This document shows positions 1 to 11,593 of a DNA stretch of 11,593 nucleotides, one piece after another. Source of the DNA: a virus; the UHGV virus genome UHGV-1887975; one strand, written 5' to 3'. A model generated the notes under the pieces. That model worked only from the letters and a program-made list of their open reading frames with translations, ran no database searches and had not been told where the DNA came from. Position 1 is the first letter of the stretch; the number at the start of each line of letters is the position of its first letter. Made by a program: the position numbers and the translations under genes.

Positions 1-128
1 CATAAAGTAAGGTCAATTACGCCAAAAATGACATTTTCACTGATCCTGATCGTCTTGCCTTATTGAATATGATTGCTATTTGCATTTAAAATCGAGACCT
101 GGTTTTTCTACTGAAATGATTATGACTT

Positions 129-141
129 CAATGACCCTTGA
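129..141. repeat. 13-bp exact direct repeat CAATGACCCTTGA, left copy; candidate left attachment-site core
   Basis: Identical 13-mer at 129..141 and 11514..11526, the latter immediately distal to the integrase gene. A single 13-mer match in an 11.6 kb window is not by itself significant. Confidence 0.3.
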
Positions 142-258
142 ATAAAGTCTATTCGGTTTTCTTTAGATGTTCGCCTCACATAATCTTCAAGTGATGTTCC
201 TTACATCTCCCTAGAGCGTTAAGATAGTTAACTGATTGAGTTTTCAGGGTATGAAAGG

Positions 259-924
259 ATGAGCAACACTACTGATTGGGGAAGCATGATAGCCAACATA
301 GTTATGGCTACTACCGCTGTCTGGGCTGCATTCAAAGCTAATGACTGGTTTAAAACCAAGCGTCTTGAGAGTGCTGAAAACTTCTATAAAGAAGTACACA
401 ATCTCCATAAACGTTACTATTCAGCTATCCAATACGTTGAGGATTCAAGAAGAATATTTGATAGTCAGTATGGGTTGCATTCGCCAATATCTGAACCTAA
501 AGACAAGTCATTGCAATGGGAGGTTAAATCGAACTCTTACAAAATCATCGCTGAACTAGATTATCTGGCATCGTCACTACAAATGATGGATGCAATGGGT
601 AACAAACTTAGCCCTAAATCGGCTTCACTGGTTAGTGATATGATGGAAGCACATGGACGATTCTGTAATGATGTGATGAACTTCAATGACTCAGTTTGGA
701 AGGTTATAAGGGCAGGTATAACTGAAGAGAACATCCCACATACGCGAGGCTATGTGAACGGCGATTACATGGCTATCCTTACCAGTATGGATGAACCTGT
801 AAGAATATCTTTTAAGTTAAAAGAAATCAGTTTTAAAGATTTTTACTTACATGAAACTACTATGCAGTCAGTAATAACGAGGCTGAAATCGCTTATCGCC
901 AGAACAGGTAAAAACAGGACATAA
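259..924 (+). CDS. Hypothetical protein, 221 aa, with predicted N-terminal transmembrane anchor
   Basis: Uninterrupted 666-nt ORF. Residues about 10-26 (IANIVMATTAVWAAF) form a hydrophobic helix followed by a charged soluble domain. The AAAGGA purine run abuts the ATG at 259 with essentially no spacer, so the true start may be the in-frame ATG at 286. No recognisable family motif. Confidence 0.55.
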   Translation: MSNTTDWGSMIANIVMATTAVWAAFKANDWFKTKRLESAENFYKEVHNLHKRYYSAIQYVEDSRRIFDSQYGLHSPISEPKDKSLQWEVKSNSYKIIAELDYLASSLQMMDAMGNKLSPKSASLVSDMMEAHGRFCNDVMNFNDSVWKVIRAGITEENIPHTRGYVNGDYMAILTSMDEPVRISFKLKEISFKDFYLHETTMQSVITRLKSLIARTGKNRT

Positions 925-1112
925 ACAGGTTAGTACCTATGCAATTTAACGGTATTTTTCCAAGTATCTATGCAATCCTACACAGATTCTATACAGTATC
1001 GACATAGTTTCCTTTTGGTATAACTTATTGAAATATATAAAGAATCTGTGAAGCCCCTTTTCAGGGTAAACTGTATCGTGTTAGTCGTCCCTCTCTCGAC
1101 TCCTAGAAAAGT

Positions 1113-1142
1113 GCTATATACAGGGCTATATAATGCTATATA
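1113..1142. repeat. Three tandem copies of GCTATATA (starts 1113, 1125, 1135)
   Basis: Direct reading: GCTATATAcaggGCTATATAatGCTATATA, spacing 12 and 10 bp. Contains a TATAAT hexamer at 1129..1134. Confidence 0.5.
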
Positions 1143-2591
1143 GATAGTTGGTCACATGGTGTAACTATCAAACTACTTAACAGTTTCCTACGTGAAAGTT
1201 AGAAAGTGATAGTTATAGTTACCTTGTCAAATCTTCGTAGTCCATTCTTAAAAAATCACTTACAGACACCTTAATATCTATACAGATTTCATGTAGAACA
1301 CGATTAGTGCGTAGAAGAGTCATTATGTTAAAAACGAACTGTATACGTATCAGTACTGATTTATAAGGGTTTTGTGTATTTGAAGATAAGAGGCTATACA
1401 GCACCTTGAGAGCATGTCTTCTAAGTCATTGATACATAAGGTCACAGAAGTTTGTGTCTGTTACAGAGAAAACTGGATAGGACTTCACAGAACTACAAAA
1501 TGTTACAGCTATTGATAGGTGAAATCTTCTTGATAGATGCCTTGAAGTGTGGTGAAGGTTTCTTGAGGTGGAGCTAAACAGATGCTATGAAGAAAGTCAA
1601 TAGTTGGTTATAGATATTTTAACTGCTTTTGCAAAGGGGGTGCTGTATCGTGAATCTGGGGTACTTAACAGCCATCAATCATGAGGTAGATTCTACCGAA
1701 TCAACTGTGTAGATATTTTTTAAGATTATCGGTGAAGGGGGAATGCAGAGGGGGGTACTACGATTTTTATAAAAATTTTCAGAAGCCAAATAACTACTGT
1801 GTATATTTTGCACAATCCTGCCAAACCTCATAGAAAGCTCTGTAGCGAGTTTTAACCCCATTTTTAGGGGTAACCTGTAGGGATGTACCACCCACCTTAA
1901 AATAAAGGGGTAAAATCGCTTAGAATGCGTTACAGAGCGTCTGAGAAGCTATATTCACAGATTTTACTAAAGTCTCAGACTTCTAAGTAGTCTTTTTAAC
2001 GGGAGGGTTCTTTCTCATGTATCACCCTCTCTTCCCGCTAAGTAAGCTACACAGACCTAGAGAACATGCCTTCACAGCATCTATATCAGGTCAGATTTAG
2101 AGGGTTTTGATAGAATTTTCAAAGGTACTTGACAGATAACTATGAAGTTGTTAGGAAGAATTGTTTAACGGGAGGAAAGATACGATATAACCCGAAGGGA
2201 AAGTATCATCTTAACAGTGATTGTAAGAGATACCTGAAAAGCTCCTCTTAACAGAACTACCAAGAAGAGAGGGAACGATAAGACCAGAGGTAGTGACCTG
2301 TTAAATAGTTCGTTTCAAAGCTCTTAAGAGTCTGTTAAGTAAGGGCTATGTGAACAATCTTACCATTTTGTCAATGCTCTTGTCTTTGACCTAAATCAAT
2401 AAAATGTATCGTTTGATATGGTTTTAAGCAAGATGGCTAAAAATCTTTTTAGAGGGGCGCTTCGCTTGTGTCACTATGTTCTTTCTCTCCCTGTCTAAGA
2501 GGGGGGTTACAGAGGTCTTTCAAGTCTCAATAGACAAACCGAGGAACGCAGGAAACCGAGGGAAGAAAAACTATTGTGATTACCCTGAACA

Positions 2592-2625
2592 AGGTCTGTA
2601 AAGGTCGTTTAAGAGGTCGGTTAAG
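2592..2625. repeat. Three tandem AGGTC-containing units of 10-12 bp (AGGTC at 2592, 2602, 2614); iteron-like
   Basis: Direct reading: aAGGTCtgtaa / AGGTCgtttaag / AGGTCggttaag. The last two units are 12 bp and differ at one position. Confidence 0.5.
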
Positions 2626-2749
2626 AAAGGAGCTTCCCTCTCTGGGGTTGTCGCTCTTCTCTCGCTTGGTGGATTGATTAGGGGGTATGTTATACAAGCC
2701 CAACTAAGAAGACCTCTGAAGCTTACCTGTGAAGAAGCTGAACAGCTAT

Positions 2750-2900
2750 TATATTGGGTGATTACAACTCATTGAAAAATAAGCATTTTTAGAAATCACT
2801 GTTAAGGTTGCAGAGTTGTCTGTGAGGAGACTTGTCTGCTCTCTATATTGGGTGGTTACAACTTATTGAAAAATAAGAACTTTTAGAAATCACTGTCAGA
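2750..2900. repeat. Pair of 57-bp imperfect direct repeats (2750..2806 and 2844..2900), 94-bp period
   Basis: Aligned by eye: TATATTGGGTGaTTACAACTcATTGAAAAATAAGcatTTTTAGAAATCACTGT versus TATATTGGGTGgTTACAACTtATTGAAAAATAAGaacTTTTAGAAATCACTGT, roughly 50 of 57 identical. Confidence 0.6.
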
Positions 2901-2998
2901 GAGGTGAATACTTGATAGATACAGCTTTCCGGTTCTGTCAAGTCATTTTTTAATAGATAGCATAAAATGCTAAAGATACCCCTATACCATCACGTACA

Positions 2999-3030
2999 GG
3001 GGGTTTTGAAGGGGGTTTAACGGGGGTCTG
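2999..3030. repeat. Three tandem G5-tract units (GGGGG at 2999, 3011, 3022)
   Basis: Direct reading: GGGGGTTTTGAA / GGGGGTTTAAC / GGGGGTCTGTG, spacing 12 and 11 bp. Overlaps the 3' end of the - strand small ORF. Confidence 0.5.
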
Positions 3031-3193
3031 TGTGGTCATTATCCTTAAGGTCAAGCGTCCATGTACGACCGAACAGTTTAAAGACAACAAGCACTCTGAC
3101 GAGGACGTAGCGAAGTAGCAGGCCTGCAATAAGTCCAATACCTCCACCAGCCCATACATCAGGTGACCCCAATTCTGGAGGGAGATTTACCAT
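3017..3193 (-). CDS. Putative small membrane protein, 58 aa (MVNLPPELGSPDVWAGGGIGLIAGLLLRYVLVRVLVVF...)
   Basis: Internal ATG of the track ORF 3017..3235 at 3191..3193 is preceded on the - strand by AAGGA about 7 nt upstream. It encodes a strongly hydrophobic glycine-rich helix of about 23 residues. It lies within locally GC-richer sequence, antisense to all neighbouring genes. Could be spurious. Confidence 0.35.
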   Translation of the reverse strand: MVNLPPELGSPDVWAGGGIGLIAGLLLRYVLVRVLVVFKLFGRTWTLDLKDNDHTDPR

Positions 3194-3410
3194 TAAATTT
3201 CCTTGTAAGACGCTCTCAATCGCATTCTGACACAAAAAAGTACCTGACCTTATAGTTGACCTGAAGAGGCCATTTAACTCGTTACAGAGCGATTGAAGAG
3301 GTCTGTGTGCAATGCAATAACCATGTGACCACTCTCATAGCCACGCCTCATATTTTACTCTCCCCATAGAACCATTATACCACAGATGTTAATGAAATGT
3401 TAAAAAGTGC

Positions 3411-3439
3411 TTGACATTAGTCTTTGAAAATGCTAGTAT
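3411..3439 (+). promoter_or_regulatory. Sigma70-type promoter: TTGACA, 17-bp spacer, TAGTAT
   Basis: Consensus -35 TTGACA at 3411..3416, 17-nt spacer, -10 TAGTAT at 3434..3439 (4 of 6 to TATAAT), about 48 bp upstream of the ATG at 3488. A TTAACAGAGG word sits at the expected transcription start. Confidence 0.55.
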
Positions 3440-3487
3440 TGTATATAAGTTAACAGAGGATTAACAATTATAAGGACTAGCTTATGA

Positions 3488-4042
3488 ATGAACGACAGAG
3501 AATTTAGAGCGATGCTTCAGGCATCAAGAGAACGCAACAAGCACAACTCCTACGCTTACACAAACAACCCCACCAGCTACGAACTACCAGCCTTTTCCAA
3601 ATCCGAACGTAAAAGCATTGAAGCGGTCATTCGTAGCATTACGCCACGAGGCAGATATATGCCAACACGCAAAACAACAAAGAATAACTTAAAAACTTTC
3701 TTGATGAGTTTTGACAGCTACGAACAATTACCGTCACGAATTGAAGATGTAATTATCGGCACTTGTCGCAGCTTTGGAAGGGATAACTATCACCGGAAAG
3801 TTTTCTATTTGCTTCGAAGCCTTGATGAGATTAACTCAAGCACAGTGACGAGCCATCTTCAAAGACAAGCAACCAGACTTAGCCACGAGCTACCATCTGA
3901 TAAGTATTGCGCTAATTTAACCACCATTTGCAATAAAGTTATCGAGACAATCAATCATCATGTTGGGGTTGGTAATATCAGCCTTACGACCAGTGAGCCA
4001 GACTTTGAATTTGACGTATACGCACAAGCAGAGGAATTTTAA
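3488..4042 (+). CDS. Hypothetical protein, 184 aa
   Basis: First gene after the predicted promoter; AAGGA about 10 nt upstream of the ATG. Basic, Ser/Thr/Arg-rich. No motif I can recognise. Confidence 0.65.
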   Translation: MNDREFRAMLQASRERNKHNSYAYTNNPTSYELPAFSKSERKSIEAVIRSITPRGRYMPTRKTTKNNLKTFLMSFDSYEQLPSRIEDVIIGTCRSFGRDNYHRKVFYLLRSLDEINSSTVTSHLQRQATRLSHELPSDKYCANLTTICNKVIETINHHVGVGNISLTTSEPDFEFDVYAQAEEF

Positions 4043-4043
4043 A

Positions 4044-4325
4044 ATGGGAAATAAACACACACTAACCAGAGTTACAAAGACAGCCTTTGAAGAACTTAAC
4101 CGAATCAAAAACATTACAGGTCTGCCACACTCAGCAGTGATGAAGCTTGCAATTAACCGTGATATTAACGAGCAGGATTTGCTTAATAGTCGTTTAGAGG
4201 CAGCAAGACACCATATCAGGATTAAGCAAGATGACCTTGATAGTCTGAAATCTTTAAATGCTTTTGGACTGGATTTAGCAAGGTTACTAAGTATCAAAAT
4301 TCACAAATTAGCGATGGAGGTTTAA
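4044..4325 (+). CDS. Hypothetical small protein, 93 aa (start moved to the RBS-supported ATG)
   Basis: Track ORF 3960..4325 would overlap the upstream gene by about 80 nt. The in-frame ATG at 4044 is preceded by GAGGAA (4031..4036) and begins 2 nt after the upstream stop. Its stop overlaps the next start (TAATG). Confidence 0.6.
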   Translation: MGNKHTLTRVTKTAFEELNRIKNITGLPHSAVMKLAINRDINEQDLLNSRLEAARHHIRIKQDDLDSLKSLNAFGLDLARLLSIKIHKLAMEV

Positions 4326-4711
4326 TGTATGACTTTTATAAACATCGTGACCATTTGGTAAGATTTGACGGTAAAGTCTGGAAAGACGTAACACAAACCA
4401 ATAAGCCCAAGTTTACCCACCAGCAATTAGCCTCAAGATTTGATATCTGGGCTGAAGCACAAAAAGATAATGGTGATTTCGAGTTTATCAGAGGTTTTGA
4501 TTATGCTTACGAAAGCGACCTTAAAGACGCCATTGAATTAATGGAGAACTTCAACTCTATTAAAAATAGTGACAAGCACAAAGCCAACGGTAACAGATAC
4601 GATAAAGATTTAATCATTGATGCAATCACCAAAGGACAATCACAAAGTTATATTTCTGAGAAATACGGCTTATCACGTAGTCAATACTACAAGATTAAAG
4701 CGTCTGTGTAA
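4325..4711 (+). CDS. Putative DNA-binding protein with C-terminal helix-turn-helix, 128 aa; possible transcriptional activator
   Basis: The C-terminal segment DKDLIIDAITKGQSQSYISEKYGLSRSQYYKIKASV has the classic pattern of a helix-turn-helix as found in small phage activators and sigma region-4-like domains. The start is translationally coupled to the upstream gene. Family assignment is an inference. Confidence 0.6.
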   Translation: MYDFYKHRDHLVRFDGKVWKDVTQTNKPKFTHQQLASRFDIWAEAQKDNGDFEFIRGFDYAYESDLKDAIELMENFNSIKNSDKHKANGNRYDKDLIIDAITKGQSQSYISEKYGLSRSQYYKIKASV

Positions 4712-4723
4712 GTCTGTGAGAAT

Positions 4724-4792
4724 GAGTGAGACTCAAAGATGAGCTACCCTATTACTAAGGTGTCTCACTCCCTCTGTAACCCGCATGGTTAC
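4724..4792 (+). promoter_or_regulatory. Two consecutive hairpin-forming inverted repeats in the gap between genes
   Basis: Perfect 9-bp inverted repeat GAGTGAGAC (4724..4732) / GTCTCACTC (4762..4770) with a 29-nt loop, followed by a 6-bp stem GTAACC (4776..4781) / GGTTAC (4787..4792) with a 5-nt loop. No U-tract follows either, so they are not classic terminators. Confidence 0.4.
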
Positions 4793-4849
4793 TGGCCTCA
4801 GAATGGCTATTTTGGCAGATTTAAGATGTGTTTTTATAGGATTTTAAAA

Positions 4850-5173
4850 ATGAATAATTTCCCACTACAGATTTTTATTGATACCGACACCGCCATGATG
4901 ATTCAGGCTTTCACTGATGTAGGTGTTAGCATTGACTTTGATAAGTTGTTAGAGTTAATGGCTGATNATNCNGANANCATCTNTGACTTTATTCACTCGG
5001 TGGAGTTTAACGAGCCTCGAATGATGTTACCAATTACAGACAGTAATATGAAAAGATTGGTTATTGAGCAAACGAACAAATACAGTATTTCCCCAGAGCA
5101 ATTTTTGAAAGGTGCTGTGACAATCCTGTACAGCGATAATATTTTGGTTACGGATTCCGTGAGGGTTCACTAA
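4850..5173 (+). CDS. Hypothetical protein, about 107 aa (alternative start 4739 gives 144 aa); contains ambiguous bases
   Basis: Track ORF 4739..5173. The ATG at 4739 lies inside the hairpin region, so the in-frame ATG at 4850 is preferred, but neither has a strong RBS. Codons 4967..4984 include N, so several residues are undefined. Confidence 0.45.
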   Translation: MNNFPLQIFIDTDTAMMIQAFTDVGVSIDFDKLLELMADXXXXIXDFIHSVEFNEPRMMLPITDSNMKRLVIEQTNKYSISPEQFLKGAVTILYSDNILVTDSVRVH

Positions 5174-5250
5174 TGGGCTTAATAATTGCTTGGACGTTGC
5201 TTGGCTTATTTGTTGGTTGCTGGGTGGGTAACACAGTAAATAAGAATTGA
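5173..5250 (+). CDS. Candidate micro-ORF encoding a 25-aa hydrophobic peptide (MGLIIAWTLLGLFVGCWVGNTVNKN)
   Basis: Its ATG overlaps the upstream stop (TAATG at 5171..5175), suggesting translational coupling. The peptide is almost entirely one transmembrane-like helix. Below the length cut-off of the ORF track and could be fortuitous. Confidence 0.3.
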   Translation: MGLIIAWTLLGLFVGCWVGNTVNKN

Positions 5251-5468
5251 TGTTATCAATCTGTTAAAAGCTGTTGACAAATAACCTTAAGCATGAGATG
5301 ATGGTAATAGGGGGCAACTCTTCCTGAATTAAACTATTAATCATTCTACATCAATGATAGTTATTCTGAGTTGGAAAGGTGCAATGCTTTTCGTCATGGC
5401 CTATTTAGCCCACACTAGATAGGCTATCTCAAAAAGTCTTTGTTTATTCATTGAATCCTTTACAGATT

Positions 5469-5496
5469 GCCCTAATCATGAGTTAGGGCGTTTTTT
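5469..5496 (+). terminator. Rho-independent terminator
   Basis: Perfect 7-bp stem GCCCTAA (5469..5475) / TTAGGGC (5483..5489), 7-nt loop, followed by G then TTTTTT (5491..5496). Confidence 0.65.
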
Positions 5497-5667
5497 AAGA
5501 GTTTTTAAAGAAATTTCTTCACCAGCCCTTTATAGCGTTTTAGTTATCTAGGGCTTTTTCAGCTTTTAAAAAGCATACTTGGCAAACGCTTTTAAGTCTC
5601 TTCTAAGTTCGTAGGCTGTCAGGTGTGCTTTTTAAAAACTGAATATTACTTAGAAGAGGAAAAAACA

Positions 5668-6378
5668 ATGACAAACGATTTATATATTAACGGCAGAAAG
5701 ATTGATAGCTTCGGGGACTGGTCACCACAGGGTGAACATCCGCTACATACTATTCAGCGTAAAGAACACGATGAAAGAATTAAGCTTGAGCAAGAGTTAA
5801 AGATGTCACCAAAGGTAATTTCCTTTGTGTCTCCTGAGCCTCAAGAAATGCCTGATGTATGCAAAACTGAAGCACTATTTAATCTTGAGCGTGAATATTA
5901 CCCACTGCTAAAAGCACAGCGTATTAAACTAGATGACGCTTACAGCAAAGTTACCCTGATGCAATCAGCTATTGAGCCATCAGAATTTGAGATTCAGGAT
6001 GAATTGTCACAGAAACCATTTGTCTATTACAAATATGAAGACAATGATGGTTTTGGTACTTTTCCTGAGAATATCCCAGACGTGATTAATAATCTTCCTG
6101 ATGGATATCGAATTGTGAAGATGGTTAAAGCTTCAAGAGGTGCTGGTCAGTTTATTTTCATGACCGATAGGAGCGATGAAGAACTCTGTGAAATTGCTAA
6201 ACAGAACATCTTAGCATCACGTAACAAGCAACTTGAAAATGTTAAGTTGTATCTCTCAAGAGAGCTTCAGGCTATGAAAGAGCTTGTTAGTGAATATGAA
6301 TCACAGAAGAAGATTGCTATGCAGGCTGATATTGAGCAGTTAGTGAAGATTTCTCAGAAATATGCAAAGGCACTTTAA
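5668..6378 (+). CDS. Hypothetical protein, 236 aa (start moved to the RBS-supported ATG)
   Basis: Track ORF starts at 5623. The in-frame ATG at 5668 is preceded by GAGGA (5656..5660) with 7-nt spacing. Acidic, with a coiled-coil-like C-terminus. No recognisable motif. Confidence 0.65.
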   Translation: MTNDLYINGRKIDSFGDWSPQGEHPLHTIQRKEHDERIKLEQELKMSPKVISFVSPEPQEMPDVCKTEALFNLEREYYPLLKAQRIKLDDAYSKVTLMQSAIEPSEFEIQDELSQKPFVYYKYEDNDGFGTFPENIPDVINNLPDGYRIVKMVKASRGAGQFIFMTDRSDEELCEIAKQNILASRNKQLENVKLYLSRELQAMKELVSEYESQKKIAMQADIEQLVKISQKYAKAL

Positions 6379-6402
6379 CTATGAATTAAAAGGAGGTGGT
6401 GA

Positions 6403-6606
6403 ATGATTGATTTAACAGAACGCTATGAGCTTATTAAAGCAATTAGTGAACGATTGAAAGAACAACCCAACAAACCAAAACGAATCAAATCATCCACCTC
6501 TAAGCAAAAGAATAGAATCAGAAGAATCGCTAAATGGTGTCTTGATAAATTACCAAGTGATTGTCAGATTGTCGGTGAAGATGGTAATTATTATCTGGTT
6601 AGGTAA
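6403..6606 (+). CDS. Hypothetical small basic protein, 67 aa
   Basis: Strong RBS AAGGAGG (6390..6396) 6 nt upstream of the ATG. Lys/Arg-rich centre (KPKRIKSSTSKQKNRIRRIAK). Followed by a terminator. Confidence 0.65.
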   Translation: MIDLTERYELIKAISERLKEQPNKPKRIKSSTSKQKNRIRRIAKWCLDKLPSDCQIVGEDGNYYLVR

Positions 6607-6631
6607 AAAGATTGGTTGGGTAAAAATCAAC

Positions 6632-6672
6632 GGGAGAGATTATCGAGTGACATCGGTAGCTCTCCCTTTTTT
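6632..6672 (+). terminator. Rho-independent terminator
   Basis: Stem GGGAGAG (6632..6638) / CTCTCCC (6660..6666) enclosing a 21-nt loop, followed directly by TTTTTT (6667..6672). Confidence 0.6.
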
Positions 6673-6702
6673 GTATATGAGATAGTCTTCTATCGAATCC
6701 TG

Positions 6703-6801
6703 TGTGCTACGTGATGATTCGGATAAGAATTATCCTCATGAAATCTGTAAAACTAATACCCACACTGAAAAATAGAATTTACGTACAACACGCTTAAAGA
6801 G
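6703..6801 (+). promoter_or_regulatory. Upstream regulatory cassette, copy 1: GTGTGCTACGTGA, ATACCCAC-N-AAAAAT, TTTACGTA, CACGCTTAAAGAG
   Basis: The same four blocks occur in the same order upstream of the gene at 9102. This copy carries an extra palindrome GGATAAGAATTATCC (6721..6735) between the first and second blocks. Confidence 0.55.
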
Positions 6802-6812
6802 GTGAAACATGA

Positions 6813-8936
6813 ATGAGCAAATTCACAGTTGATAGTTTTATCGTTGAGCTAGGCTTCAATGAAAACGTTATTAAGGGACTGCAAAGAGTTGAAAAGGCAG
6901 CTTTGCAGTCAGCACAAAGAATTGAAAAGAACCTAAATAAAGGTTTCAGGATTAATACAAAGCAGCTTGATAGTAATTTAACGGCTTCTTTAGGGCAGCT
7001 TGAAAGGAAGTTTAATAAGGCCTTTGACAAGATTGAACAGAGAGCAAGAAATACTAAAGCTTTCCAGTTTACCACCAGATTTAATGACACTGTTAATCCT
7101 CCAAAACAACCAAGACAGCCACGAATTAGCGGAAACAGAGCAATCACAGCAGCTTACTCAGCGAATATGAGCAAGCTAAAAGGCCTTAACCCAATTGTCG
7201 AGAAATACATTAAGAGTCAGTTTTACGGGCTATCTGCTAAAGCCGGGTCAATGGATTCTTCAAAATTCAATGAGAAGTTAGCTCAGTTAAACGCTTCAGT
7301 CAGAGAAGCAATTGCTAAAGCCAGAGGTCATACATCCACCAGCATTAATGGTGACAGAGCAGCTAATAGTCTTGATAACCTGTCTTCAGCAGCAGTTAAA
7401 ACAGCAGGTGCATTTATCTCAATGCAGGCTGTATTAGCCAGTTATCAGAAGATTATGGAAATTGGTTTACAGCGTGCAAGTGCTGAACGTTCAATTGATT
7501 TCGTATTTGATAAAGATGCAGGTCAGGTAAAAGAGTTCACAAAGTCATTAGCTCAAACAACGGGTTTAGATATCGCTGAACTGCAATCACAGTTTGCTGG
7601 TTTTGGTGCTTCAGCTAAAGAGTCTATGGGTATTCAAGGTTCTGAAGAACTTTTTAAAAATATGATTGGCTATGCTCGTCTGATGGGGAGAAGTGAAGAA
7701 GAGATTAAGCGAGCACTGACAGCATTATCACAGATGGCTGGTAAGGGTCAGATTATGGCTGAAGAGCTTAAGGGGCAACTGGCTGAAGCTGTTCCTGGTA
7801 TGGTTCAGGTATTCGCTAAAGCAACCGGAAAGACTGAACAGGAATTATTTGATGCCATGAAGAAGGGGGCTTTAAAATCTGCCGATACTCTTCAGAAGGT
7901 CACTCAGGAACTGAATAAACAAATCACCGCTAAAGGTGGCTGGAAAGCCATTTCAGAAAGTACTCAGGCACAACTAGGGAACTTGAAAAACTCTTGGAAT
8001 ACCACGCTTGATAGTATCTTCAGAGGTTCTGAAAATGGTCTGCAAGATTTTACACGAAGCCTAACAACGCTTTTAAACGCTCTTGGTGGAAGTGGTAAAA
8101 GTCTTGGTGAATCTCTTGGTAGTCTCATGACTTCTATGTCACATGGTGTCGATAGTCTGACCGATATTAGTTACAAGGTGCGAGCGTTCTTTGATGAGGT
8201 GACATTAGCTTACCGTTCACTAAATGACACTCAGAGGAAAATTGTTGATGGTTTATCTGATGGGTTAATTGATGGTTTGAAGATGCTTGCTGTGGCTGTT
8301 ACTGCTCAAAAGGCTGCAAATGTAGCTGGAGGCTTGTTAAACCTTGCAAATGCTGTTACTTCATTCGGTGATGCTGTTAATAAAGCTAAAGCTGGCAAGG
8401 CTGGTTCTTCAGGTGGTGCGCTAAGTAAAGTCGGTAGAGTTGTCCTTTATGCTGAGTTGGTAAACTTTGCTCTTGATAATTTAAACCCTGAAGCAGCTAA
8501 GAATCCGAACTTACACCAATCAGGTATTGGTACAGAAACAAACTTCAATCCTGAATACAAAGGCGATTCTAAACCAAACCAAATTAATGAGGGGTGGGCT
8601 AAGATTGGTAGTTCTATCGCTGACTGGTTTAATGGTGCAGCTAATAAAATTGCTAACTTACAAGAACCGATGAATAACTTCGTAAATAACACACAATCAA
8701 CTCCACCAGCTATCGACACGGTGAATATCAATGCTCAATTAGCTATGGCTGTATCAGAGTTAGGAAGAAAGGTTGATGCTTTAACAGTAGAAGCTCGGAA
8801 GCCTTTATCAGTTAATATCAAAGGTGAAGCAATTGTTAGGCCGGATGAGCCATCTTTCTTTAATTTCAATCAATCAGCTAATGACCAGTTCACGCAGGAT
8901 ATGCTCTTAAGTTCAAGCTATCCAGAGGAAGAATGA
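6813..8936 (+). CDS. Tape-measure-domain protein, 707 aa (putative phage tail length tape-measure protein)
   Basis: The central segment GYARLMGRSEEEIKRALTALSQMAGKGQIMAEELKGQLAEAVPGMVQVFAKATGKTEQELFDAMKKGALKSADTL matches, as I recall it, the conserved tape-measure signature of lambda gpH-type proteins. N-terminus is coiled-coil-like; C-terminal third is Asn/Gln/Ser-rich low complexity. RBS AGAGGTG about 10 nt upstream. Confidence 0.75.
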   Translation: MSKFTVDSFIVELGFNENVIKGLQRVEKAALQSAQRIEKNLNKGFRINTKQLDSNLTASLGQLERKFNKAFDKIEQRARNTKAFQFTTRFNDTVNPPKQPRQPRISGNRAITAAYSANMSKLKGLNPIVEKYIKSQFYGLSAKAGSMDSSKFNEKLAQLNASVREAIAKARGHTSTSINGDRAANSLDNLSSAAVKTAGAFISMQAVLASYQKIMEIGLQRASAERSIDFVFDKDAGQVKEFTKSLAQTTGLDIAELQSQFAGFGASAKESMGIQGSEELFKNMIGYARLMGRSEEEIKRALTALSQMAGKGQIMAEELKGQLAEAVPGMVQVFAKATGKTEQELFDAMKKGALKSADTLQKVTQELNKQITAKGGWKAISESTQAQLGNLKNSWNTTLDSIFRGSENGLQDFTRSLTTLLNALGGSGKSLGESLGSLMTSMSHGVDSLTDISYKVRAFFDEVTLAYRSLNDTQRKIVDGLSDGLIDGLKMLAVAVTAQKAANVAGGLLNLANAVTSFGDAVNKAKAGKAGSSGGALSKVGRVVLYAELVNFALDNLNPEAAKNPNLHQSGIGTETNFNPEYKGDSKPNQINEGWAKIGSSIADWFNGAANKIANLQEPMNNFVNNTQSTPPAIDTVNINAQLAMAVSELGRKVDALTVEARKPLSVNIKGEAIVRPDEPSFFNFNQSANDQFTQDMLLSSSYPEEE

Positions 8937-8952
8937 TTTCTTATATATATCC

Positions 8953-9026
8953 GTGTGCTACGTGAAATCTTCTGAACGGATATACCCACTAAAAATTATT
9001 TTTTACGTAGCTCACGCTTAACAGAG
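8953..9026 (+). promoter_or_regulatory. Upstream regulatory cassette, copy 2: GTGTGCTACGTGA, ATACCCACTAAAAAT, TTTACGTA, CACGCTTAACAGAG
   Basis: Same four blocks as 6703..6801 in the same order and similar spacing, but without the palindrome insert. Ends about 75 nt upstream of the ATG at 9102. Confidence 0.55.
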
Positions 9027-9101
9027 AAAATACTTATATATCAAAGGTTTGGTTAAAAATGATTAAAATACACTAAGCCTTTGAAATCAAAGGAGAATTT
9101 A

Positions 9102-9872
9102 ATGATTTACACTAATCAGCTTCGTTACAGTGGCAAAGATGGTGTTTACTTCCATCTACAAGGCCAACCAGATAATTTCTTGTCACTATCAGCAACTGAG
9201 AACATGGAATATGACAGCCCTATGATGGTGACCACTCAAAATATGCAATCAGGGCAGACTGTAACAGATAATGTAATGCGTTCACCAAGAACTATTTCAA
9301 TCAGTGGTGTGGTTGTGGTTGGTGAATCCGGTAGTATCCTTATCTCAAGAGATAATAAGCTGGTGGAAAACTTCATAGACACTCTTGAAAACTGGCGTGA
9401 CCAGAAGCAAATTATCTCAGTTGTCTGTAAAGATGGTATTAAGATTGACGACTCAATTATTACAAGCTTTAAAGCCTCTAAAGATGTTGGTATTTCAAAC
9501 GGCCTAAGAATCCAGCTAACTTTTCAGGAAATCAACTTTAAAGCTATCGTAGGGCAAACTGATATTTCGACTGCTACTGGCAAGACCGCTACCACGAATG
9601 ATGGTGGTGCTACTTCTAAGAAGAATACAGGGAATACTACGACAAGTCTTGGAAGCCCTATGCTGACCTGTAAAGAGCTTTTTAGCTATTCGGCAAGTAA
9701 GTTATCAGATGAAGCGCTAAAAGCCCGTGTAACGTGCTCTAAGAGCGTTAGCGTTAAAAATGGTGAGAGCACCTTCACAGCCTCAGCTAATGAGCAAGCT
9801 TCAAAGGTGCTTAAGTCGGGTAATGCTTTACGGAAGTACTCTGTGAATCCGAATAAGAAGGGCACTTATTGA
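9102..9872 (+). CDS. Hypothetical protein, 256 aa; possible tail-associated structural protein by position only
   Basis: The track ORF begins at a TTG (9081). The ATG at 9102 has AAGGAG (9090..9095) at 6-nt spacing. Ser/Thr/Gly-rich. Assignment as tail-associated rests only on its position after the tape-measure-like gene. Confidence 0.65.
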
Positions 9873-9876
9873 GACA

Positions 9877-9899
9877 TAAAAAGGGGCTTCATAGCCCCT
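9877..9899. terminator. Terminator hairpin between convergent genes
   Basis: Perfect 7-bp GC-rich stem AGGGGCT (9882..9888) / AGCCCCT (9893..9899) with a 4-nt loop. AAAAA (9877..9881) on the + strand gives a U-tract after the stem for the - strand transcript (integrase); a weaker A/T stretch follows for the + strand. Confidence 0.6.
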
Positions 9900-9904
9900 G
9901 AAAA

Positions 9905-11425
9905 TTACAGTTGATAAGCGTCAATATCCAGTAGCTCTTTATCAGCAATTTCAAAGATTGGTGACCCATCATTTAGCGGTAACGGGTTTGTAGGTATGGT
10001 TATTTCAGTGTCGTTCTGTAGCGTTACAGTTACCGAATCCTTACCCAATGTCAGCCCCTTTAGATGCTTGGACAAAATCAACTGACACTCGACACGACCC
10101 GCTTTAGTTGTCAGGTCAATATCTTTAAGCTGGGGTAGTTCCTTATCAGTGAGTGAAGCCTTACGCCTCATGTTATCAATCGTGGTCTGTAGCTCTGTGC
10201 GCTTCTGGTTCAGTTCCTTAAGCTGAATTTTTAGTTCATCAATATCATCCATCTCAAGAAGTAGGGCGGTAGCTTTCTTGATTCTGGTTGTGACAATTTC
10301 AACCTCATGCTGTAGAGATGCAATCTTCCCCTCTGCTTCTCCATCATTCCCCACGTCAATCATCCCCAGAAAATTATCAATCATCCACTTATCAAACGGT
10401 TTACGCTTCAACGGAGGAACATCACAGCGACCATCAAGATGGTTATTGCACCGATAAACGCCCTGATACTTATTCTTAGTCCCTGTAGGGTGAACACTAG
10501 CCCCGCACTGACACCTAAACAGACCTTTGAAGATGTTAATCGTTAATGGATTATCACTTGCAGGTGTACGGCCTATACGGTTCTTACCAAGAATCTCTTG
10601 AGCTTTATTGAACGTTGAAGCATCTATAGCGGCTTCGTAGTAGTTCGGTATAGCGGGGCGGTCATTACGTTGTGATGCTGGTAACGTGCCTATCGTTGTC
10701 TCTGACCTTAAGATGGTGCGTACAGAGTGAACACTAAACCCGTTAGCATCTTTACGGCGACTAAACGACTTTATACCGTTGCTTTGAAGGTGACGGGCGA
10801 TGTTATGCAGACTTTCACCACTTAGCAGCAGCTTGAAAATCAGTCTTACAGTCTCAGCGTGTTCATTGAGTTTAAAAGTATCGGGGTCAATCCATCCGGG
10901 AACCATCTTTGTTAAACGTTGTTCACCAGCAAGGGCAAGTTTTGCACGTTGCTCCCATTTCTGAGAAACACGGAAAGACTTCTGCTTAGATTCCTGATGC
11001 GCTATGTAGGCTTTGACACGCTGGATGATTGAGATTCCTAAATCATCGGCTAAAGCATCCTTTGTGTAGATAAGACCATCTTGTAGCGTGTGAATCTCTA
11101 ACCCGTTGCCTAAGATGCGATTCATCAAGGCTTCTGTTTCAAGGTGTTCTAAGCGGCCTATACGGTCGATACTCTCAACAAGCAAAATCGTACCTTCTGG
11201 AAACTCCCCAGACTCAATACGGGCTAACATGTCACCAAACTGACCAGTAAGATGCTTACCTTTGTAACCGGATAGGCCTTCATCACTGAAAGACGCTACT
11301 ACTTGAGCATCGCTATTCTTCTTCAGCCACTGCTTGAACAGGTCGTTTTGTCGTCTGGTTGAATCTGCACCTTCAGCGCCTTGTATAGCTGAACTGTACC
11401 GAAGGTATGTAATTACGCTCCTCAT
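9905..11425 (-). CDS. int: Large serine recombinase (site-specific integrase), 506 aa
   Basis: N-terminal resolvase-type catalytic domain with candidate nucleophilic Ser in YLRYSSAIQ, a D-x-G-x-SG motif (SDEGLSGYKG) and LVESIDRIGR resembling the resolvase DRLGR box. A large recombinase domain follows, then a Cys-rich zinc-ribbon-like segment (CQCG...C...C) and a C-terminal coiled coil. This is the typical large-serine-recombinase architecture. GGGAG RBS upstream on the - strand. Confidence 0.9.
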   Translation of the reverse strand: MRSVITYLRYSSAIQGAEGADSTRRQNDLFKQWLKKNSDAQVVASFSDEGLSGYKGKHLTGQFGDMLARIESGEFPEGTILLVESIDRIGRLEHLETEALMNRILGNGLEIHTLQDGLIYTKDALADDLGISIIQRVKAYIAHQESKQKSFRVSQKWEQRAKLALAGEQRLTKMVPGWIDPDTFKLNEHAETVRLIFKLLLSGESLHNIARHLQSNGIKSFSRRKDANGFSVHSVRTILRSETTIGTLPASQRNDRPAIPNYYEAAIDASTFNKAQEILGKNRIGRTPASDNPLTINIFKGLFRCQCGASVHPTGTKNKYQGVYRCNNHLDGRCDVPPLKRKPFDKWMIDNFLGMIDVGNDGEAEGKIASLQHEVEIVTTRIKKATALLLEMDDIDELKIQLKELNQKRTELQTTIDNMRRKASLTDKELPQLKDIDLTTKAGRVECQLILSKHLKGLTLGKDSVTVTLQNDTEITIPTNPLPLNDGSPIFEIADKELLDIDAYQL

Positions 11426-11488
11426 GGTGATAAACTCCCATGCAATTGATTCTCATTTAAAGATAAGCTTATAACCATTATGGCTAAT

Positions 11489-11526
11489 GCTACAATGCCG
11501 AATAGCTACAATACAATGACCCTTGA
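11489..11526. repeat. Integrase-proximal repeat cluster: GCTACAATG / GCTACAAT / ACAATG, then the right copy of CAATGACCCTTGA; candidate attachment-site region
   Basis: Direct reading of 11489..11526. The 13-mer at 11514..11526 is identical to 129..141. Sequence to the right becomes GC-rich (cctcgccgcttcccctggccgacg...). Confidence 0.4.
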
Positions 11527-11593
11527 TTTACCTCGCCGCTTCCCCTGGCCGACGTTACTTTCGGTCTGCATTCATGGTGCTGTTGTGGCGGGG

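Follow-up and report, generated by a model that had tools for sequence, protein, structure and literature searches.

The nearest described concept for the element reported here is the promoter-early stem-loop (PeSL) of T4-type phages, a mobile regulatory cassette in which a strong sigma-70 promoter lies beside a terminator stem-loop and of which a phage carries dozens of copies (PMC2839356, PMC4122927). Our subject is a stretch of 11,593 nt, the viral genome UHGV-1887975 (hereafter the window), of which positions 142–11513 correspond to an island of ~11.4 kb between yciI and tonB in the E. coli chromosome. A cassette precedes each of the only two virion genes of this island, which encode a tape-measure protein (TMP) and a Dit-like baseplate protein and are both Felixounavirus-related. 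A preliminary description of the window had recognized four sequence blocks before both genes and interpreted them as a dedicated class of late promoter. We find that the four blocks are parts of one imperfect palindrome rather than independent boxes, and that the two cassettes very probably belong to a family of palindromes that also occurs in P1-like phage-plasmids and in further phages of enterobacteria.

Like a PeSL, the cassette is short, conserved and intergenic, combines a hairpin with promoter-like sequence and is repeated beside genes. Its conservation exceeds that of the flanked genes, and in both systems recombination between copies is associated with indels and the swapping of modules; the copies here mark such boundaries, as seen in presence or absence at TMP, in shuffled spacer types and in chimeras. 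It differs from PeSLs in that the stem-loop itself contains the promoter-like core, which is weak, in the lack of a U-tract (the hairpin is followed by GCTTAACAGAG without a T-run and was not listed by a terminator scan), in its number of only one to three copies and in being shared among unrelated phages, plasmids and an island.

REP, BIME and REPIN elements are enterobacterial intergenic palindromes that occur in either orientation and can stabilize upstream mRNA; REPs number hundreds of chromosomal copies. The cassette resembles them as an imperfect intergenic palindrome of fixed length with conserved arms and a less conserved middle, and may likewise stabilize mRNA upstream of it, but it differs in sequence, is confined to phage-related DNA and has no RAYT-type transposase linked to it. 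Instead of a high copy number, BLAST found 594 places in 460 of 5426 complete E. coli genomes, all of them at the island, chromosomal and unannotated. The late promoters of P2 and P4 are activated by Ogr/Delta, have a poor −35 region and a dyad-symmetric upstream site, and drive satellite morphogenetic genes. The concept of satellite morphogenetic genes behind a poor −35 and a dyad is common to both systems, whereas the second arm of the cassette would lie over the predicted start site and the motif is absent from the putative helper; the TGT-N12-ACA dyad, found near −55 in P2/P4, has no match in 6680–6815 or 8935–9105. The T4-type late promoter motif TATAAATA at −10 is represented only by TATATATA at 8942, outside the cassette, boxA (GCTCTTTAACAA) of nut/rrn-type antitermination has no match at up to three mismatches (GCTTAACA lacks three boxA bases), and a sigma-54 motif is absent. 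Rfam covariance models returned only a chance mir-75 match elsewhere in the window (E 0.69).

The four blocks are parts of one imperfect palindrome

The whole cassettes span 6702–6802, directly upstream of the TMP gene, and 8953–9026, directly upstream of the Dit-like gene. That the same four blocks stand in the same order before both genes, as had been described, was borne out by alignment of the two regions and goes far beyond chance. GTGTGCTACGTGA is found exactly at 6702–6714 and 8953–8965, and at up to three mismatches it has 9 matches in place of 1.9 expected, a number reached in 0 of 200 shuffles. TTTACGTAnnnCACGCTTAA is exact at 6778–6797 and 9002–9021 (0.04 expected), while ATACCCAC, exact at 6756 and 8982, is weak alone (12 one-mismatch matches, 5.8 expected). 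A repeat search pairs 6739–6797 with 8963–9021 at 71% identity.

An inverted repeat underlies the blocks: block 1 (GTGnGCTACGTGA), read as its reverse complement, gives block 3 and the first part of block 4 (TTACGTAGCTCAC), so that block 1 forms one arm and blocks 3/4 the other (6702–6714/6779–6791 and 8953–8965/9003–9015). The cassette is an imperfect palindrome of ~70 bases, GTGnGCTACGTGA ... TYACGTAGCnCAC, with arms of 13–17 nt and with block 2 in the spacer. Its copies in the window are composed as follows.

6702..6714, plus strand: left arm of copy 1, GTGTGCTACGTGA (block 1)
6715..6741, plus strand: 27-nt insertion in copy 1 with the inner palindrome GGATAA-gaa-TTATCC
6742..6778, plus strand: spacer of copy 1 with ATACCCAC (6756–6763, block 2), an A-tract and a −10-like TAGAAT (6773–6778) touching the right arm
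6779..6802, plus strand: right arm of copy 1, TTACGTACAACAC (6779–6791), then GCTTAA and AGAGG (blocks 3/4)
8953..8965, plus strand: left arm of copy 2, GTGTGCTACGTGA
8966..9002, plus strand: spacer of copy 2, of the canonical 37 nt, with a −35-like TGAACG (8973–8978), ATACCCAC (8982–8989) and an A-tract
9003..9026, plus strand: right arm of copy 2, TTACGTAGCTCAC (9003–9015), then GCTTAACAGAG
1183..1303, minus strand: degenerate third copy with left arm and spacer start at 1279–1303 and right arm TTTCACGTAG at 1183–1196

The insertion in copy 1 parts the left arm from the rest of the cassette, which gives a spacer of 64 instead of 37 nt, and is shared by L005 and L012 (L numbers are labels of the collected loci, namely islands, phages and phage-plasmids); its inner palindrome presumably resembles Fur-type or RcsAB-type boxes. 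AAGAGG at the end of copy 1 is the ribosome-binding site of TMP, and the spacer of copy 2 ends in a −10-like TATTTT (8997–9002). The partial match noted earlier at 1187–1194 is one arm of the third copy, which is also present in L006; the better arm of this copy (1279–1303) matches 19 of 21 bases of CGTGTGCTACGTGAAATCTGT, and its arms are 93 nt apart.

A palindrome family probably shared with P1-like phage-plasmids and other phages

When viral contigs were searched for CTACGTGA-N37-TYACGTA, many unrelated contigs besides the islands showed the same architecture. Their arms are often longer (GCGCTACGTGAAATCTG ... CAGATTTCACGTAGCGC), and their spacer has a central ACCC(G/A)C and is then A-rich. 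A profile built from the family copies recovers them as well as a copy in phage P1 (L123), which scores 30.7 bits in nhmmer. Among the contigs are several P1-like phage-plasmids, which carry pacB, c1, coi and cre, and P1-type copies are present on plasmids in 731 of the 5426 E. coli genomes, one per plasmid.

In P1 itself, BLAST locates the element at nt 115–178 of AF234173, between loxP and cra/cre. The annotated −10 of the promoter P3cre (TAAAAT) lies in one arm, nothing else is annotated there, and the palindrome as such has no annotated function; a literature search that did not include the P1 genome paper found no account of it. The P1 element and the cassette have in common their arms, the 37-nt spacing, the spacer sequence and a position just upstream of a gene start. 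They differ in that the arms of P1 and its relatives measure 19–20 bp, that the spacer of this group is less A/T-rich and that one P1 arm is mutated to the TAAAAT annotated as −10, which reads into the element rather than out of it. In L054, a diverged P1-like phage-plasmid, positions 6593–6626 hold a lox-like site of 13-8-13 layout (ATAACTCCATATA-ACACCCAT-TATATGGAGTTAT). It is situated 35 nt from the palindrome and ~110 nt before the cre homologue, so that the palindrome is not lox.

Other phages carry the element in the terS–terL interval, between terL and the gene that follows it, between lysis genes and terS, or before a portal-like gene, mostly 20–45 nt from a start codon and in either orientation. 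A tblastn search found no neighbouring protein common to all contexts, and a BLAST comparison of L091 with P1 aligns only the 68-nt element.

Both window copies share the traits of the family: two inverted arms with a TACGTRAA core, the 37-nt spacing (37 + 27 in copy 1) and spacer homology beyond the arms. The core TACGT(G/A)AA is invariant in both arms in all 44 distinct copies, the window copies included. Ungapped spacer identity amounts to 23/37 between island type A and the reverse strand of P1 and to 25/37 between type B and the phage locus L066, values reached in 0 of 20,000 shuffles each, compared with 21/37 between types A and B. Types A and B are closer to different outside lineages than to each other, which implies horizontal exchange; judged by their spacers, the island cassette types belong to different lineages of the wider family. 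The cassette is a portable, horizontally exchanged element and not a promoter class private to the island. Of the structural-gene promoter class proposed in the preliminary description there stands the conserved cis element before both genes, while its exclusiveness falls with the copies in P1 and other phages.

Spacing and conservation among related islands

We collected 28 copies from 19 related islands, taken from a viral-contig scan and from E. coli genomes. The distance from CTACGTGA to TYACGTA is 37 nt in 24 of the 28, 38 nt in one and 64 nt in three; the 64-nt form is that of the TMP copy of this window, 37 nt plus the inserted 27. The copies recovered from P1 and other phages are likewise spaced at 37 nt, though each of the two scans that gathered copies had one feature set beforehand, the sequence of block 3/4 or the spacing of 37 nt. 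Among the islands the spacer falls into four types, which differ at about half of their positions while keeping their length, and this constancy suggests a constraint on the length or geometry of duplex DNA. Even ATACCCAC varies, being ACCAACAT in one type and ATATATAC in Citrobacter. Invariant in the island copies are the arm cores, ATA at spacer positions 15–17, part of the A-tract, the TA...T hexamer touching the right arm and GCTTAA after it. The hexamer reads TAGAAT, TATTTT, TAGATT, TAATTT or TAGTTT in 22 distinct island copies, always TA...T, and these bases are also an inner extension of the palindrome in other family members.

Across islands the arms and block 4 are 84–100% identical, compared with 69–96% for Dit genes, 46–97% for spacers, 38–86% for TMP proteins and down to 33% for integrases. 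The Dit-like gene is found in 495 of the 5426 complete E. coli genomes (~9%), so that the 460 genomes with a cassette correspond to a cassette before Dit in ~93% of carriers. The cassette precedes Dit also in Citrobacter sp. ANG330 and E. albertii, and the expectation that it would be conserved upstream of orthologous genes holds in the islands of E. coli, E. albertii and Citrobacter. The Dit cassettes of L019 (393–412) and of the E. coli matches H104–H110 have lost their left arm and the greater part of their spacer to unrelated sequence, which resembles an insertion-sequence end and joins exactly before the TAGAAT hexamer.

The copy before TMP has to be seen together with the features around it.

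6632..6672, plus strand: intrinsic terminator GGGAGAG...CTCTCCC followed by T6, which closes the upstream operon
6813..8936, plus strand: TMP gene, 707 aa (PF20155, phrog_4036; ATG at 6813)
9039..9101, plus strand: leader of the Dit-like gene with a second hairpin, TCAAAGGTTTGG...CTAAGCCTTTGA (fold z −3.3)
9102..9872, plus strand: gene of the Dit-like/baseplate protein (PF21821, phrog_3721; ATG at 9102)
9905..11425, minus strand: large serine recombinase

The terminator (−21.1 kcal/mol, z −4.5, then U6) is kept in 16 island loci, directly before either TMP or cassette copy 1. The TMP copy itself is absent from at least 7 of 17 related loci, which runs counter to a dedication of the cassette to structural genes. 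In the loci that lack it, 5–45 nt separate the T-tract of the terminator from the TMP ribosome-binding site. L029 reads TTTTTTGTAT joined to GAGGTG, and L013 carries the cassette between identical flanks, 8 nt after the T-tract; L014, L032 and L007 retain only a GAAC(G/A)CTTAA remnant at the TMP site. The TMP and Dit positions do not have spacer types of their own; the types are shuffled between the two, and copies in L016 and L028 are chimeric.

A weak promoter between operator-like arms is the favoured reading

The far stronger constraint on its arms than on the genes, together with the near-fixation of the Dit copy, makes it probable that the cassette has some cis-regulatory role. For the nature of this role we favour a weak internal promoter bracketed by operator-like arms, a reading to which we assign a probability of about one in three (0.35). 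The cassette would act in cis on the gene immediately downstream, always Dit and optionally TMP. Its two inverted arms with the invariant TACGTRAA core would hold the asymmetric spacer, first C-rich and then A-rich, at 37 nt, and the spacer would contain a weak promoter of sigma-70 type, made up of the TAnnnT hexamer that abuts the right arm and, in the commonest types, of a −35-like TGAACA 18 nt upstream of it. Transcription would start inside or just past the right arm, and a putative factor binding both arms would make the promoter conditional.

This reading is favoured on account of the fixed geometry, the invariant TA...T, the packing of terminator, cassette and ribosome-binding site at TMP and the precedent of P1. 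The TA...T positions are those that a −10 element conserves. Copy 1 fits tightly into the gap from a strong terminator to the ribosome-binding site of TMP, and a new start signal directly after such a terminator is plausible. In P1, the homologue overlaps the annotated promoter P3cre. The usual distance of 20–45 nt to a start codon in other phages speaks for it as well.

A number of observations weigh against it. A scan of 6700–6810 and 8950–9100 for TTGACA-16..18-TATAAT with at least 9 of 12 matches found no site, in agreement with the earlier statement that the blocks do not resemble a sigma-70 −35/−10 pair. The best manual reading, TGAACG-18-TATTTT, attains 8/12, and spacer types A and D are without any −35. 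Conservation peaks in the arms and in the 16 bases that would be transcribed first rather than in the −35/−10 region, and as TAGATT or CAGATT the hexamer is an inner extension of the palindrome, so that the "−10" may be a by-product. In two phage lineages (L041/L056/L122 and L066/L078) the spacer points against the flanking genes, and the third copy of the window lies in a stretch free of open reading frames with no gene downstream. The TMP copy is optional, and given the loci in which TMP stands without it, the cassette would not be needed for TMP transcription. The 27-nt insertion shifts the left arm by 2.6 helical turns and should disturb cooperation between the arms. Finally, none of the island's proteins has a counterpart encoded close to the element in other phages, no binder of the arms is known, and an informal comparison of the arms with transcription-factor sites of E. 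coli brought up no convincing candidate.

In a more specific form, which we regard as decidedly unlikely, the arms would be the operator of one putative factor, most economically a host protein of the Enterobacteriaceae, that gates genes of different mobile elements. The module would then be a "plug-in switch" traded among mobile elements, with cre as the gated gene of P1-like plasmids, packaging genes as those of other phages and tail-gene decoys as those of an island that targets Felixounavirus.

Alternative explanations

An mRNA hairpin is an explanation of the palindrome that we judge only a little less probable than the promoter. The arms would pair in the TMP–Dit message or in read-through transcripts and form a stem just upstream of the ribosome-binding site, which could be a processing site, a 5′/3′ stabilizer uncoupling the two cistrons or a translational operator. 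Folding of the copies yields stable hairpins (z −2.1 to −6.0), exemplified by copy 2 (8950–9025, −19.3 kcal/mol, z −3.9) and by the copies of P1, L054, L049 and L046 (z −4.5 to −6.0), but the third copy folds no better than shuffles. As no terminator lies between the TMP stop codon and copy 2, the stem would be part of any TMP transcript. The island stem is far better conserved than its loop, the element lies within late operons of other phages independent of orientation, and the 27-nt insertion of copy 1 is located in the loop of the fold and forms a small hairpin of its own. In the islands, L066/78, L076 and L091 a T/C polymorphism of the right arm switches a sense-strand pair between G-U and G-C, and at variable positions the arms of the same copy match slightly better than those of different copies (16.25 vs 15.05 paired positions, standard deviation 0.31).

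Other features of the same arms are at odds with base pairing. The 8-nt core is invariant in both arms of all 44 copies with zero compensatory changes. At its variable position the model strand has 17 G-C, 19 G-T, 8 A-C and 0 A-T combinations among the 44 distinct copies, that is eight A-C mismatches and not one A-U pair; the G/A variant never occurs in both arms of one copy (0/44), which is odd for pure base-pairing, in which an A-U pair would be fine. Differences in the outer arms between island copies are uncompensated, a strict distance of 37 nt is unexpected for a loop, Rfam gives no match, and the annotated promoter of P1 starts within the element, so that its transcript would lack one arm.

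We consider it unlikely that the cassette is a mobile or recombinogenic palindrome without a dedicated regulatory role, either selfish or tolerated, which serves as a homology patch for module swaps. Such an element would account for its clean presence or absence at the TMP site (L029 and L013, with the remnants in L014, L032 and L007), for the spacer types shuffled between TMP and Dit and the chimeras in L016 and L028, and for spacers that bring type A closer to P1 and type B closer to L066 than A is to B. The flanks are unrelated between phages, as in L091 and P1, the cassette is better conserved than TMP, the integrase and other surrounding genes, and the third copy is gene-less and decaying. 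On the other hand, the copy number is very low, with at most three per island and one per P1-like locus, BLAST found no copy elsewhere in E. coli chromosomes, and neither a target-site duplication nor an associated transposase is apparent. That the cassette is almost fixed before Dit, and that its arms are under strong purifying selection while spacers diverge, speaks for a function that goes further than hitch-hiking.

The evidence thus divides three ways. Recognition of duplex DNA is indicated by the invariance of the sequence and by its constant spacing; conservation of stem over loop, independence of orientation and wobble on the sense strand point to a hairpin of RNA or of a single strand; presence/absence polymorphism, shuffling and homology across elements point to a mobile or recombinogenic module. 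The hairpin and a role as recombination linker, both rivals to be taken seriously, may combine with the promoter between operator-like arms.

The preliminary description had proposed a dedicated class of late promoter that depends on an activator or sigma factor encoded by the island or by a helper phage and possibly mimics late promoters of the helper. We now hold this to be highly improbable. It would fit the lack of a good −35 and the location before tail genes that are homologous to Felixounavirus genes. An activator is also conceivable, given that the temporal control of transcription in Felix O1 is unknown and no polymerase or sigma factor has been recognized there (PMC3185647). However, the blocks, the arms and a hidden Markov model of the cassette have no match in the candidate helper, Felixounavirus HY02, a BLAST search of copy 2 in 50,697 phage records, among them more than 150 Felixounavirus genomes, found no enterobacterial phage, and the element is also present in P1-like plasmids and in phages unrelated to that helper. 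Gene 4325–4711, a helix-turn-helix gene named as the candidate activator, does not co-occur with the cassette and is absent from islands that keep both copies (e.g. L005), and TMP often stands without a cassette. Two candidates for mimicry of the helper were rejected: enriched k-mers in HY02 intergenic regions are dominated by terminators and tRNAs with no shared motif, and an ATAGAAT..ACGT resemblance in a divergent promoter region of HY02 is by estimate at chance level.

Hardly credible is a site of DNA rearrangement, be it a promoter switch that can invert or a site used by the serine recombinase of the island for attachment or resolution: although inverted repeats enclose a segment that is short and asymmetric, and although a large serine recombinase is encoded by the island and a small one in addition by some relatives, this idea is largely refuted by a spacer orientation that is the same in 28/28 island copies (0/28 inverted), by the direct orientation of the copies around TMP, between which recombination would delete TMP, by true island junctions whose ATGACCCTTGA core is unrelated to the arms, by arms that are unchanged in islands with a 33%-identical integrase, and by the separate lox site beside the element in P1-like plasmids.

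The island and its gene content

The island is inserted at the first codons of tonB, with the core ATGACCCTTGA at both junctions (~141/142 and ~11513/11514). The tonB reading frame is intact after insertion, while its native upstream region is displaced by 11.4 kb (window 100–141 and 11505–11530); the sequence newly upstream of tonB contains two GCTACAAT motifs. The integrases of related islands differ, and in many of them identity is only 33%. Several other products of the island are small proteins without a family match.

The Dit-like gene is 71% (aa) and 80–84% (nt) identical to genes of Felixounavirus (Felix O1-like) phages, in which its counterpart abuts the tape-measure gene with zero gap. 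The island TMP is chimeric relative to that of Felixounavirus HY02: the first 47 aa are 70% identical, the middle 29%, and the last ten residues, LLSSSYPEEE, are the same in both. This kinship gives the island the look of a satellite, or of a defence island, directed against Felix O1-like phages, and a TMP with a replaced middle looks as if it were built to enter or poison Felix O1-type tails. A literature search found no description of the island or of any Felixounavirus satellite, and the island family is apparently undescribed. The Dit-like gene has a leader whose TCAAAGG recurs in the ribosome-binding region (TCAAAGGAG). The hairpin of this leader has 13 bp, and its 3′ strand (CCTTTGA) could alternatively pair with TCAAAGGAG, which would make a translational switch possible; the leader is missing from "type 2" Dit alleles (deleted in L007-type loci).

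Positions 930–3480 comprise ~2.5 kb without an open reading frame of more than 72 aa; they are rich in TAACAG and TTACAGAG-like motifs and hold a 53-nt direct repeat (2750 and 2844, 92%). At the same position, related islands carry variable cargo, namely an AP2-like regulator, a Dam-type methylase or a small recombinase. Divergent near-consensus sigma-70 promoters at 3370–3440, TTGACA-17-TAGTAT on the plus and TTAACA-18-TATAAT on the minus strand, look like an early control region of the island. Six ambiguous bases (N) are located at 4967–4983, within the reading frame 4739–5173.

Gene 5668–6378, labelled "transposase" in RefSeq and thousands of database entries, was considered as a mobilizer of the cassette and rejected. 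It has zero Pfam, NCBIfam or PADLOC matches, a single-sequence AlphaFold model of its product (pLDDT 70.6) consists of a coiled coil and a small beta domain, and the predicted fold has no significant match in the PDB; the name appears to have been propagated without basis. Directly before the strong terminator that precedes TMP, 6403–6606 encodes a conserved 67-aa protein with a Lys/Arg-rich stretch (KPKRIKSSTSKQKNRIRRIAKW). In islands lacking cassette copy 1, TMP is reached only via read-through of this terminator, which led us to the speculation that the 67-aa protein is an N-like antiterminator.

Significance

If the cassette controls expression, it would offer a handle on when the island makes its tape-measure and baseplate proteins, in an island family that is present in ~9% of complete E. 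coli genomes and whose tail proteins look built to fit Felix O1-like tails. The same element stands unannotated beside cre in P1, among the most used of phage DNAs, and in several further phage lineages. As a short module that is conserved above its accompanying genes and exchanged between phages, plasmids and islands, the cassette provides, outside the T4-like phages, a concrete and testable case of regulatory DNA that is portable.

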